Of a stretch of 64,000 nucleotides of DNA, positions 24,281 through 29,747 are shown piece after piece. Every line of letters begins with the position of its first letter. The first letter of the stretch is position 1. The position numbers and the translations under genes are program-made. The notes beneath the pieces were generated by a model. That model did not search any database. It was not told the origin of the DNA and saw only the letters and a list, made by a program, of their open reading frames with translations. This stretch comes from Escherichia coli (lineage in GTDB: Bacteria; Pseudomonadota; Gammaproteobacteria; Enterobacterales; Enterobacteriaceae), in assembly GCF_003018255.1 (NCBI RefSeq), contig NZ_CP027440.1. One strand, given 5' to 3'.

Positions 24281-24634
24281 ATGTCATTTCTGTTACCCAT
24301 TCAACTGTTCAAAATTCTTGCTGATGAGACCCGTCTGGGCATCGTTTTACTGCTTAGCGAACTGGGAGAGTTATGCGTCTGCGATCTCTGCACTGCCCTC
24401 GATCAGTCGCAGCCCAAGATATCCCGCCATCTGTCATTGCTGCGTGAAAGTGGGCTATTGCTGGATCGCAAGCAAGGTAAGTGGGTTCATTACCGCTTAT
24501 CACCGCATATTCCAGCATGGGCGGCGAAAATTATTGATGAGGCCTGGCGATGTGAACAGGAAAAGGTTCAGGTGATTGTCCGCAACCTGGCTCGACAAAA
24601 TTGTTCCGCAGACAGTAAGAACATTTGCAGTTAA
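24281..24634 (+). CDS. arsR: Arsenical resistance operon repressor
   Basis: 117 aa, metal-binding ELCVCDLC motif in the HTH region. Confidence 0.95.
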   Translation: MSFLLPIQLFKILADETRLGIVLLLSELGELCVCDLCTALDQSQPKISRHLSLLRESGLLLDRKQGKWVHYRLSPHIPAWAAKIIDEAWRCEQEKVQVIVRNLARQNCSADSKNICS

Positions 24635-25990: not shown

Positions 25991-26416
25991 ATGAGCAACA
26001 TTACCATTTATCACAACCCGGCCTGCGGCACGTCGCGTAACACGCTGGAGATGATCCGCAACAGCGGCACAGAACCGACCATTGTCTATTATCTGGAAAC
26101 CCCACCGACGCGTGATGAACTGGTCAAACTCATTGCCGATATGGGGATTTCCGTACGCGCGCTGCTGCGTAAAAACGTCGAGCCGTATGAGGAACTGGGC
26201 CTTGCAGAAGATAAATTTACTGACGATCGGTTAATCGACTTTATGCTTCAGCACCCGATTCTGATTAATCGCCCGATTGTGGTGACGCCGTTGGGAACTC
26301 GCCTGTGCCGCCCTTCAGAAGTCGTGCTGGAAATTCTGCCAGATGCGCAACAAGGCGCGTTCACCAAGGAAGATGGCGAGAAAGTGGTTGATGAAGCGGG
26401 TAAACGCTTGAAATAA
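25991..26416 (+). CDS. arsC: Arsenate reductase (glutaredoxin-coupled)
   Basis: 141 aa, MSNITIYHNPACGTSRNTLEMIR catalytic Cys12 motif. Confidence 0.95.
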   Translation: MSNITIYHNPACGTSRNTLEMIRNSGTEPTIVYYLETPPTRDELVKLIADMGISVRALLRKNVEPYEELGLAEDKFTDDRLIDFMLQHPILINRPIVVTPLGTRLCRPSEVVLEILPDAQQGAFTKEDGEKVVDEAGKRLK

Positions 26417-26462
26417 AGCGGCGATATCCACTGCCCATAGTTGGTAAAGTGCGCTTTGTTTA

Positions 26463-26500
26463 TGTCGGATGCGACGCTAACGCGTCTTATCCGACCTACA
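26463..26500. repeat. REP-like palindromic element downstream of arsC
   Basis: GTCGGATGCGACGCTAACGCGTCTTATCCGACCTAC resembles the REP consensus. Confidence 0.5.
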
Positions 26501-26538
26501 AAACCGTGCATGGCATGAAATCTGTAGCGCGTAGCGCA

Positions 26539-26835
26539 TCAGGCAATTTTGCTATTTACGCAGCACTCCTCGCGTAAGAATTCAATTATCGCTTCCAGCA
26601 TTGCGTATTGCGAAACACACATCAGCGTTCGACTCTCACGGTTTTGTTTGACCAGCCCTACCGATACCAGTGCTGAAATATGGTGACTGAGTGTAGAGCC
26701 GGGTATCCCAAGCTGCTTTTGCAACTCACCGACCGGCAACCCTTGTTCCCCGGCTTTGACAAGATGTTTAAATATGAACAAACGGGTCGGGTGACCTAGC
26801 TCTTTCAGCGCTTTAGCGACTTCTTCCAACTGCAT
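26539..26835 (-). CDS. ArsR/SmtB-family transcriptional regulator with C-terminal vicinal cysteines
   Basis: wHTH signature GIPGSTLSHHISALVSVGLVK; C-terminus ...EFLREECCVNSKIA; start set at MQLEEVAKALKEL with SD GAGGGGG about 6 nt upstream (ORF track gives a longer 119-aa form). Confidence 0.75.
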   Translation of the reverse strand: MQLEEVAKALKELGHPTRLFIFKHLVKAGEQGLPVGELQKQLGIPGSTLSHHISALVSVGLVKQNRESRTLMCVSQYAMLEAIIEFLREECCVNSKIA

Positions 26836-26941
26836 ATGATCCCCCTCTGTCTGGTTGATATTTCGATAATACCAGAAATATCTTGATCTGAATTTCATTT
26901 CGATTATTCTGGAAATATAGATTTATTCAATGAGGTTATGT

Positions 26942-27943
26942 ATGAGTAGTTGGCTTGCGATGCTGCAAGATGCCACAGAGATGTTTGTGTTTCTCGCCGT
27001 CGAGCTTTCTTTGCTGTTTATAGTGATTAGTGCCGGTGTGAGCCTGATAAGACAAAAGGTGCCAGACCATAAAATCCAGCAGATGATGGGGGCAAGAAAA
27101 GGGAAAGGCTATCTCCTGGCTGCTCTGTTGGGAGCCGTCACCCCGTTCTGTAGTTGCTCGACAATCCCTATGTTACGTGGATTGTTATCAGCGAAAGCCG
27201 GGTTTGGTCCGACCCTCACTTTTTTATTTGTTTCCCCATTACTTAATCCCATTATCGTCGGGTTAATGTGGGTGACCTTTGGCTGGAAAGTTACCTTGTT
27301 GTATGCGATTATCGCCGCCGGCGTCTCCGTACTTGCCAGTATTATCCTCGATTCTCTGGGATTTGAACGTCATATCATTGCCAGTAAAAGCTCATCAGCA
27401 AATTGTTGTGCTCCAGCCAAAACTTCGCCGGGGACGACATATACGCCAATAAAAGTGAGTTGCTGTAGTCCAGCGGCTAAAGCCATTGAGAAACCTGTAG
27501 TAAACTGTTGCAGTACCAAAGCTGTGGTAAGTATTAATCCCATAAAACTAGCCACCAAAGATGCGTTGCAACAGTTTAAAGATGTACTGCCATATCTTTT
27601 GTTAGGGGTATTAATAGGCTCTTTTATTTATGGCTTTATTCCCTCAGAGTGGATTGCCGCTCATGCAGGGGCAGATAATCCCTTCGCCATCCCATTGAGC
27701 GCCGTTGTCGGTATTCCGCTATATATCCGGGCAGAGGCGGTTATCCCTCTGGCATCTGTTCTGATGACAAAAGGAATGGGTCTGGGAGCATTAATGGCAT
27801 TAATCATCGGCAGTGCCGGCGCAAGCCTGACGGAAGTGATATTACTTAAATCAATGTTCAGAATACCGATGATAGTTGCATTCCTGACGGTTATATTAGG
27901 TATGGCTATCTTGATGGGCTATTTGACTCAAATGCTATTTTAA
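26942..27943 (+). CDS. ArsP-like permease (DUF318/COG0701 family) with TPFCSCS motif and a cysteine-rich central loop
   Basis: Polytopic membrane protein; motif GAVTPFCSCSTIP; central loop with three CC pairs (NCCAPAK, SCCSPAAK, NCCSTK); start set at MSSWLAML preceded by GAGGT (ORF track starts 4 codons earlier). Confidence 0.7.
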   Translation: MSSWLAMLQDATEMFVFLAVELSLLFIVISAGVSLIRQKVPDHKIQQMMGARKGKGYLLAALLGAVTPFCSCSTIPMLRGLLSAKAGFGPTLTFLFVSPLLNPIIVGLMWVTFGWKVTLLYAIIAAGVSVLASIILDSLGFERHIIASKSSSANCCAPAKTSPGTTYTPIKVSCCSPAAKAIEKPVVNCCSTKAVVSINPIKLATKDALQQFKDVLPYLLLGVLIGSFIYGFIPSEWIAAHAGADNPFAIPLSAVVGIPLYIRAEAVIPLASVLMTKGMGLGALMALIIGSAGASLTEVILLKSMFRIPMIVAFLTVILGMAILMGYLTQMLF

Positions 27944-28523: not shown

Positions 28524-29747
28524 ATGTCAATTGACTTTACCCCATGTATGATAAATACATATCACGGCGATATTTATAACCGCACAACAGATACCGACAA
28601 TGTTAAAACACCAGACACACCGAAGTGGCCTTGCGATAATTGGGAAGAACAACAACCCATTAATTCCACATTCTCTGGAGAAGGATATACCTCTGATCAA
28701 TATGATTTAGCGCAATACCAACTTCAACAAATTAATGCGTGCCACACGAACACTACATATACAAATGCAGACTACTCAAAAGTTGTGGCTCAACTTGTAA
28801 GTCTTATTACTAACATTGAAACGATAAGTTCGACACAACTTACGCAACAGACACAATCAATACTTAATCAGATTAATAACATTAGATACGAAAAAAACAA
28901 AAGTGCTGAATATCGAATCATTGTTGTCGCTAATCCTAAACCCGACAAGGCAATCATAACTAAAATTAGCGTAGAAGAGGGAATACCAGTAAGATTCAGT
29001 GTCCAAACCATGTTTTCAGATACTAATTTTATTACTGAACAACGAGCTGACTTACCGACTAATATAAAAGATATTCAAAGCCTGTATCAAAAAATGACGA
29101 AGTTATATATTGAACACAGTGAAAATAAAAACAGGATGAAAGTCTTTGCTGGAACCAACTTTATTGATTTCAATGTGACAGGACAGGACCTTTCCGGGTT
29201 CGTTCTAACCTTGTCAAGGTTTTATTTCGAAGATCTACTTAATATAAATTTCACTGACGCAAATTTAGGTGACACTATTTTTTCACATAAAGAACACCCT
29301 ACCCCAAAATTATATAAAGACGAACAATATCTTGACAAACAAATCGAAGGTTTATTTTCAACATTATTAACCATTAATGACAACTTTTTACGAGCAAAAG
29401 CGGAAATTGCTTCGACAATAATTAAATTCTTAGAGGCCAGGATAACCAATATTTCATACAATGACATATTAAAATATCAGCAAGAATTCAAAAAACAATG
29501 TTATAAGCAAGTTAAAGCCTTTACGACACTCTCCCGATACAATAAAATTCAAACATGGGCAGAAATGTCTGAATATCAATTCGAAGTATTTCAATACGAG
29601 ACGCTTAACCCAAAAAAAATGTCATACGCACCTTATTTAAAGAGATCGCTACCTGATGAAAAAACTATAAATTATGGGGTGGAAATAGAAACACCAACTG
29701 GCAAAAGAATTCGCTTATTAAATCATTACCAGAATATAATCCCATAA
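28524..29747 (+). CDS. yhiS: YhiS-like hypothetical protein, intact
   Basis: 407-aa AT-rich ORF immediately upstream of slp; call rests on position and product size, not on motif recognition. Confidence 0.6.

Follow-up and report, generated by a model that had tools for sequence, protein, structure and literature searches.

Paired putative operators of an SpArsR-like repressor between divergent regulator and permease genes of Escherichia coli

Chen, Nadar and Rosen reportedly described SpArsR, in 2017, as an ArsR repressor selective for methylarsenite (MAs(III)). In Shewanella putrefaciens 200, this repressor binds methylarsenite via Cys101-Cys102 and gives no response to arsenite (As(III)) (PMC11868830, PMC13236881). 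The authors who used the arsP promoter of the same organism place it under the control of its ArsR (PMC12124457). In the supplement to that paper, Sallet et al. (2025) give a synthetic construct in which the native 222-bp arsP promoter is combined with a codon-optimised SpArsR gene, and in biosensor strains carrying the arsP fragment and SpArsR, MAs(III) induced the reporter much more than As(III) did (PMC12124457). Here, we analyzed a 64,000-nt stretch of E. coli DNA from contig NZ_CP027440.1 (hereafter, the window), in which a gene pair of the same kind, encoding a regulator and a permease, is transcribed divergently from a 106-bp spacer at positions 26836–26941. Judged by comparison with related loci, two sites in this spacer, each a 26-bp pseudo-palindrome, are very probably the binding sites with which the regulator switches both genes off.

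Relationship to the SpArsR/arsP system of Shewanella

The regulator gene (26539–26835, minus strand; Prokaryotic Genome Annotation Pipeline (PGAP) coding sequence WP_001175589.1) encodes a 98-amino-acid (aa) protein of the ArsR/SmtB family and of the SpArsR type, and the permease gene (26942–27943, plus strand; PGAP coding sequence WP_001562250.1) encodes a 333-aa protein of Pfam family PF03773 (ArsP_1). The annotation is that of an identical E. coli genome; E. coli strain 200164 matches the window with 100% identity over 1.7 kb. The sequence-only reading of this DNA had placed a 106-bp spacer between an ArsR-like and an ArsP-like gene, and this stands: the regulator ATG (26835, minus strand) and the permease ATG (26942) that bound the spacer agree with the PGAP starts. 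The regulator matched HTH_20 (PF12840; E-value 1.5e-14) and HTH_5 (PF01022; E-value 5.3e-07) in Pfam, and passed the NCBIfam model NF033788 for ArsR/SmtB metalloregulators with 61.9 bits against a cut-off of 55. Its AlphaFold2 (AF2) model (predicted local distance difference test score, pLDDT, 93) has the alpha1-alpha2-alpha3-alpha4-beta1-beta2-alpha5 order of ArsR/SmtB proteins, with helices at residues 3–13, 16–31, 35–42, and 46–58, strands at 62–67 and 70–75, and a last helix at 77–92. Nearly all of the top 50 fold matches of this model in the PDB were named ArsR/SmtB-family proteins.

For comparison, the SpArsR sequence was reconstructed from the PDF-extracted construct, allowing for dropped bases. 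The reconstructed protein has 105 aa with cysteines at positions 83, 101, and 102, the last two in agreement with the published numbering, and shares 57.6% identity with the regulator in the window over 92 aa (E-value 3e-41). Cys73, Cys91, and Cys92 of the window regulator correspond to Cys83, Cys101, and Cys102 of SpArsR, with an offset of 10; SpArsR has a 10-residue N-terminal extension, whereas the E. coli regulator does not. All three cysteines were invariant in an alignment of 21 regulator homologs, and in the AF2 model, Cys73 lies in the second wing strand and Cys91-Cys92 at the end of alpha5. The Cys32-X-Cys34-X2-Cys37 arrangement of the type-1 site is absent, as the regulator has no Cys before residue 73.

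Two other ArsR proteins are useful for comparison. AfArsR of Acidithiobacillus ferrooxidans (6J05) was both the best PDB sequence match of the regulator (E-value 4.7e-10) and its best fold match (template modelling (TM) score 0.89), at an identity of only 30%. Both proteins have a vicinal Cys pair at the end of alpha5, the pair of the regulator being aligned with Cys95-Cys96 of AfArsR. However, AfArsR, which senses inorganic As(III), uses Cys102 as a third ligand (PMC11868830), and this residue has no counterpart in the window regulator, which ends six residues past the CC pair (...EECCVNSKIA) with no further Cys. The presence of a CC pair without a third ligand matches the signature reported for SpArsR. 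The canonical E. coli ArsR (R773 and chromosomal arsRBC) is likewise an ArsR/SmtB repressor tied to arsenic resistance, but it is encoded by a separate gene 2 kb upstream in the window (24281–24634; motif ELCVCDLC), and its metalloid site is a CVC motif within the part of the protein that binds DNA; the regulator of the divergent pair has no such motif.

The genes for SpArsR and ArsP (Sput200_1227 and Sput200_1226) and the E. coli pair are both arranged as a divergent regulator and permease, and the likeness extends to the DNA between them. The S. putrefaciens arsP promoter contains AGTAATTCGATAATACCAGAAATATC (29.1 bits), which ends 19 nt from the arsR start, and a second site, AATATTTCCATAATTCCAGAAATTAA (25.6 bits), just ahead of a TTGAAA-17-TATTAT promoter. 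Shewanella and E. coli thus have the motif in common, along with its distance from the regulator start and its position immediately ahead of the permease -35 hexamer. The spacing differs: in Shewanella, the spacer is 222 bp long, the sites are far apart, and a degenerate third site follows the -10 hexamer, whereas in E. coli, the two sites are 37 bp apart in 106 bp and the predicted permease -10 hexamer lies inside site 2. The E. coli spacer thus amounts to a compact version of the regulatory region used in the working SpArsR-based MAs(III) biosensor. Another ArsR that responds to MAs(III), from Noviherbaspirillum denitrificans, has an arsRM promoter (Nd-ars-gBlock, PMC12124457) in which ATTTCCAGTATTTTGAAAT occurs. 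Its half-sites resemble those described here but are one base closer together, and no matrix match was obtained; the spacing is uncertain, as bases are dropped in the PDF text.

Chen et al. reportedly found in 2015 that transport by ArsP needs two conserved cysteines, for which the cysteines of the TPFCSCST motif described here are candidates. The E. coli permease matched PF03773 over residues 9–330 (E-value 1.5e-52, 179 bits), and its TPFCSCST motif (C70 and C72) was invariant in 49 permease homologs. It belongs to the same PF03773 fold family as the organoarsenical efflux permease ArsP of Campylobacter jejuni (Transporter Classification 2.A.119), SO_0444, and SaoE, and it has a conserved Cys-Ser-Cys (CSC) motif, which is the signature common to SO_0444 and SaoE (bioRxiv 10.1101/2022.07.06.499078). 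Unlike the Shewanella system, the E. coli permease carries a variable, Cys-rich central loop (27404–27514, residues approximately 155–190), in which three vicinal Cys pairs occur as NCCA, SCCS, and NCCS. Such pairs abound in the homologs from Enterobacterales, Aeromonas, and Vibrio, and the approximately 300-aa forms of Shewanella and Photobacterium have none; C156 alone is widely conserved.

A literature search found no paper citing the accessions of the E. coli regulator or permease and none describing a chromosomal arsP of E. coli. Operator sequences were printed in no paper found, the original description of SpArsR lying outside the search. Taken together, the E. coli system is of the SpArsR/ArsP type, with a repressor of the ArsR/SmtB family and, at two divergent promoters, a pair of probable operators that are each pseudo-palindromic; its mechanism would be an ordinary one.

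Anatomy and conservation of the paired sites

The sequence-only reading had noticed a repeated motif in the spacer, and both of its strings are present, CGATAATACCAGAAATATC at 26864–26882 and CGATTATTCTGGAAATATAG at 26901–26920. A repeat search returned a direct repeat of 22 nt (26860–26881 and 26897–26918; 82% identity, 37 bp apart), and comparison among relatives gave a 26-bp imperfect palindrome with the consensus TATATTTCGATAATAcTaGAAATATA (approximately 32 bits), the half-sites of which are ATATTTCGA and nnGAAATAT; the matrix and its own reverse complement have a correlation of 0.84. Predicted operator site 1, GATATTTCGATAATACCAGAAATATC, lies at 26857–26882 (plus strand), 21 nt from the regulator start codon, and scored 32.1–35.3 bits. 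It holds a perfect 8-10-8 inverted repeat, GATATTTC-N10-GAAATATC, which was also returned by the repeat search. Predicted operator site 2, TTCATTTCGATTATTCTGGAAATATA, lies at 26894–26919 (plus strand) and scored 30.1–32.0 bits; the two sites are co-oriented. The classical 12-2-12 operators of SmtB, CzrA, CadC, and NmtR are likewise 26-bp imperfect inverted repeats over the core promoter, and are often duplicated. However, the half-sites in the window are of the TTTCGA/TCGAAA type and not of the classical TGAA/TTCA types, and the AT-rich central spacer appears to double as a -10 hexamer, unlike that of the classical operators.

The repeated motif exceeds chance. There are exactly two matches to the pattern ATTTCGA-N8-GAAAT in the 64 kb, and both lie in the spacer. 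When a 26-nt test matrix was trained solely on loci with a regulator less than 72% identical to that of the window, site 1 scored 32.1 bits and site 2 30.1 bits, and no match of 8 bits or more was found on either strand in the rest of the window; this includes the arsR promoter of arsRBC, near which the matrix scan found no copy of the motif. In 50 shuffles, the mean best score was 2.7 bits, and the top score was 19.5.

Homologs of the regulator are numerous across Gammaproteobacteria and beyond. We surveyed 80 loci, using one genome per species, with regulator homologs 59–91% identical to that of E. coli and genera that included Aeromonas, Citrobacter, Photobacterium, Shewanella, Vibrio, Endozoicomonas, and Pseudovibrio. 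A divergent permease gene, as in E. coli, was found at approximately 42 of the 80 loci, and a few others had the permease gene downstream or farther off; at approximately 30, no permease gene lay within 2.5 kb of the regulator gene. A site of at least 15 bits ended at most 100 bp from the regulator start at 72 of the 80 loci, most often 16–21 nt from it. The remaining 18 matches in the approximately 375 kb surveyed were directly upstream of a relocated permease homolog, with the exception of two, which precede a Cys-rich open reading frame (ORF) in locus L070 and a glutathione synthase gene in locus L075. In other words, the site accompanies the regulator gene and the permease gene even at loci where the two lie apart, and regulators with no neighbouring permease retain one complete site. 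Every divergent spacer contained at least two copies of the motif, and those of Vibrio three. All copies had the same orientation, with the ATTTCGA half facing the regulator gene.

A closer comparison was made in an alignment of 13 close relatives (alignment A2), comprising E. coli alleles, plasmid paralogs, Citrobacter, Aeromonas, Buttiauxella, and Limnobaculum. Site 1 had a majority fraction of 0.99, with 22 of its 26 columns invariant, and site 2 a fraction of 0.88, with 11 of 26. The fractions for the untranslated stretches were 0.49–0.63 (0–1 invariant columns per stretch), and those for the adjacent coding ends were 0.78–0.87 (8/30 and 16/30 columns invariant). The two sites are the most conserved portion of the spacer and form a textbook phylogenetic footprint.

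These results bear on the form of the binding site. The sequence-only reading had regarded ACCAGAA and TTCTGGA as near reverse complements forming an imperfect dyad. Their complementarity is real (6 of 7 positions; 26871–26877 and 26907–26913), and the repeat search even found 25-nt arms around them (26858–26882 and 26902–26926) with 72% complementarity. It is hardly credible, however, that they form a single long-range dyad to which one repressor unit binds. The arms are approximately 36 bp apart, which is too far for one winged-helix dimer, and each copy is itself a dyad, the arms of site 1 being perfect. Furthermore, the distance between copies ranges from 25 to 66 bp among lineages, single complete sites occur at regulators with no adjacent permease, and the central bases vary with no covariation between copies. 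Each heptamer belongs to the inner portion of the right half of its own copy, and the complementarity between them is incidental because the true dyad axis sits inside each 26-bp copy.

It is also very unlikely that the conserved blocks are simply core-promoter or UP-element sequence, or the target of another factor such as the canonical ArsR or a global regulator. The blocks are indeed AT-rich and contain -10-like hexamers, but their most informative columns are the G/C-containing half-site positions (TTTCGA and GAAA), which lie outside those hexamers. In Vibrio, the site upstream of the -35 hexamer is a perfect 8-4-8 palindrome, ATTTCGAT-N4-ATCGAAAT, at a place where no hexamer is needed. 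The sites strictly co-occur with the regulator gene across many genera and occur nowhere else in the 375 kb, and no site was found close to the arsR promoter of the window. The evidence thus favors the neighbouring regulator as the protein that would bind these sites.

Promoters and the predicted mode of repression

The predicted promoter of the permease gene consists of a -35 hexamer, TTGATC (26883–26888, plus strand), which directly abuts site 1, and a -10 hexamer, TATTCT (26905–26910, plus strand), which follows after 16 nt and lies inside the centre of site 2. For the regulator gene, a putative extended -10 element, TGGTATTAT (26866–26874, minus strand), lies at the centre of site 1, approximately 30 nt upstream of the start codon; its CCA and ATAATA columns are conserved throughout alignment A2 or with very few exceptions among the 13 sequences. 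The arrangement around the permease promoter recurs in other lineages. At 39 of the 42 two-site loci, TTG(A/C)nn begins 3–7 nt past the core of the upstream site, and all 39 loci with that -35 hexamer have TAnnnT at a spacing of 16–18 nt. At all 11 loci of the Enterobacterales/Aeromonas type, the -10 hexamer is inside the centre of the downstream site, its first base being at +7 or +8 of the core, and in most other genera, the left edge of the downstream site is itself the -10 hexamer (TATATT or TATAAT). In either layout, the predicted permease promoter is sandwiched between two sites. Meanwhile, in E. coli, the AT-rich centre of each operator seems to double as the -10 element of one of the two divergent promoters, which would account for the departure of the right half-sites (CCAGAAAT and CTGGAAAT) from the ideal TCGAAAT.

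The two sites are likely to be operators of the adjacent dimeric winged-helix repressor, the SpArsR homolog, by which both divergent genes are repressed. Occupation of site 1 would cover the extended -10 element of the regulator gene and abut the permease -35 hexamer, and occupation of site 2 would cover the permease -10 hexamer TATTCT and the likely start point. Bound repressor would exclude RNA polymerase from both promoters, resulting in autorepression and in repression of the permease gene. When an effector binds to Cys91-Cys92 at the end of alpha5, the repressor would leave the DNA, both genes would be expressed, and the permease would then export the toxicant. The spacing between sites (25–66 bp among lineages, 37 bp here) shows no conserved helical phase, and we therefore infer that the sites are occupied independently rather than through obligatory looping. 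The proposal in the sequence-only reading that this region is the operator for autoregulation and permease control is thus supported by comparison, namely by the conservation of the sites, their linkage to the two genes, their overlap with the predicted promoters, and the Shewanella arsP promoter; only the geometry that it gave to the dyad had to be replaced.

The placement of the promoters also bears on whether the palindromes could act as RNA, in the form of hairpins in the 5' untranslated region (5'-UTR), an attenuator, or a small RNA. Each site could fold as a short hairpin, and site 1 would be within the 5' region of the regulator transcript, although only if transcription begins further upstream. 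However, with the predicted promoters, transcription would start beyond or at most of each site, the arms, rich in A/T, are no more than 7–8 nt long, and one half-site degenerates with no compensating change in the other. An Rfam search of 26400–27100 gave no match in the spacer and only a sub-threshold match to naRNA4. A role as RNA is accordingly extremely improbable.

Effector and surroundings of the gene pair

By analogy, the most likely effector of the repressor is a trivalent organoarsenical such as methylarsenite. The points in favor are the relationship with SpArsR, the CC pair without a third ligand, the occurrence of arsH beside regulator homologs in Hafnia and Pantoea, and the position of the pair adjoining arsRBC.

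Several points weigh against parts of this interpretation. The identity of the effector is deduced from 57.6% identity to SpArsR, and Cys73 is invariant with no assigned role. The Cys-rich loop of the permease, with its three CC pairs, could point to soft metals, and SO_0444 and SaoE are the only NCBIfam equivalogs that the permease touches, far under their cut-offs. When the permease was considered as an equivalog of the SO_0444 Cu/Zn efflux protein or of SaoE, it scored 109.3 bits against 300 and 85.7 bits against 325, respectively, and both assignments were rejected. Relatives of the regulator adjoin genes for glutathione synthase, MAPEG-family protein, and SigZ, and the family may thus be sensitive to a wider range of thiol-reactive toxicants. 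With regard to the promoters, the hexamers are assigned at the level of consensus matching, no conserved -35 hexamer for the regulator promoter was found among the relatives in alignment A2, and a generic promoter scan reported two other promoters in the spacer with 9 of 12 matching positions, TTGATA-18-TATCTT (plus strand) and TTGAAT-16-AATAAT (minus strand). The -35 hexamers of these two are unconserved beyond E. coli and its plasmids, and they were retained only as possible secondary promoters.

It is therefore worth considering that the operators and the repressor are as described, but that the effector and substrate are a soft metal (Cu, Zn, Cd, or Hg) or another thiol-reactive toxicant, which we regard as possible though doubtful. 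The sub-threshold NCBIfam matches, the CC pairs of the loop, and the neighbouring genes mentioned above, together with a heavy-metal P-type ATPase gene near one regulator homolog, agree with such an effector, as does the additional Cys that follows the CC pair in some homologs from Vibrio; some Photobacterium homologs have it as well. On the other hand, the closest characterised relative, SpArsR, is reported to be MAs(III)-selective (PMC11868830, PMC13236881), the response of the arsP-promoter biosensor to MAs(III) far exceeds that to As(III) (PMC12124457), and the regulator keeps the CC pair and lacks an equivalent of AfArsR Cys102. The association with arsH and the position beside arsRBC also favor organoarsenicals, and the Cys-rich loop is not a defining feature because many family members lack it. 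An organoarsenical thus remains the preferred effector. It is rather unlikely, but conceivable, that the E. coli module, with the unusual Cys-rich loop of its permease, answers a toxicant other than methylarsenite, for example a soft metal or a thiol-reactive compound produced by the host or its microbiota, which would represent a new specificity in the SpArsR clade. In other bacteria, the conserved predicted operator of this repressor family likewise stands ahead of arsH, of glutathione synthase genes, and of other neighbouring genes.

Of 5426 complete E. coli genomes, 2225 (approximately 40%) have the whole chromosomal regulator/permease pair, which K-12 lacks, and the spacer was found in 2385 E. 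coli genomes, including 364 plasmid copies of a paralog approximately 82–84% identical. If the proposed function is correct, many E. coli strains, whether commensal, pathogenic, or plasmid-bearing, would have, besides the classical arsRBC system for inorganic arsenic, a dedicated module under its own regulation that senses and exports trivalent organoarsenicals. This would be relevant to arsenic methylation in gut and soil and to the past use of roxarsone-type feed additives. The compact 106-bp regulatory region and the small repressor could supply biosensor design with elements native to E. coli in place of those from Shewanella, and the operator model (26 nt, approximately 32 bits) can be used for annotating the regulon in Gammaproteobacteria. 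The interest of the system lies chiefly in its widespread though uneven distribution across E. coli and its plasmids, and in how clean the operator model is.

The plasmid paralog of the whole pair (L002:4063-6431; regulator WP_001175594.1) directly adjoins IS26. Its site 1 is unchanged, the right half of its site 2 is altered (GAATAAT), and it has a perfect minus-strand TTGACA aimed at the regulator gene.

Various genes adjoin regulator homologs at the surveyed loci. In Hafnia psychrotolerans (L056:2770-3546) and Pantoea septica (L076:2770-3552), the start of arsH (TIGR02690; 402 and 406 bits, respectively) overlaps the 3' end of the gene for a regulator homolog with 65–66% identity, and the heavy-metal P-type ATPase gene lies just upstream in P. 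septica. Eukaryote-type glutathione synthase genes (PF03917/PF03199) adjoin regulator homologs in Moritella and Thalassotalea (L075:2956-4529 and L043:652-2163), and the gene in L075 is preceded by two operator-like sites of 24.4 and 19.8 bits. In Vibrio lentus (L024:324-938), the regulator homolog overlaps a downstream gene for a sigZ-type extracytoplasmic function (ECF) sigma factor. In at least one other Vibrio (L035:2844-3230), a gene for a MAPEG-family membrane protein, confirmed with Pfam, follows the regulator homolog; downstream ORFs resembling it occur in L030, L051, and L054, Pfam confirmation applying to L035 alone.

Within the E. coli spacer, a good ribosome-binding site (RBS) for each gene is present: that for the regulator gene, GAGGGGGA, can be read at 26840–26847 (minus strand), 4 nt ahead of the ATG, and that for the permease gene, GAGG, at 26932–26935 (plus strand), 6 nt ahead of the ATG. 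A longer regulator ORF of 119 aa (26539–26898, minus strand), with its ATG at 26898 in the operator region, is an artefact of the mechanical ORF list; this start was rejected, since the PGAP protein and every homolog begin with MQLEEV (26835), a start preceded by a strong RBS. Along the chromosome, the gene order is gorA-dinQ-arsR-arsB-arsC, the regulator/permease pair, a frameshifted hypothetical gene, slp, and dctR. Downstream of the permease gene is a 407-aa ORF (28524–29747); in the identical RefSeq genome, the annotation of the corresponding stretch is that of a hypothetical protein with a frameshift. A palindromic element of the repetitive extragenic palindromic (REP) type (26458–26496) separates arsC from the 3' end of the regulator gene. 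The sub-threshold naRNA4 match belongs to this element (29.7 bits against a gathering score of 59.5), a 38-nt piece of which also matches unannotated DNA in many E. coli genomes without the pair.

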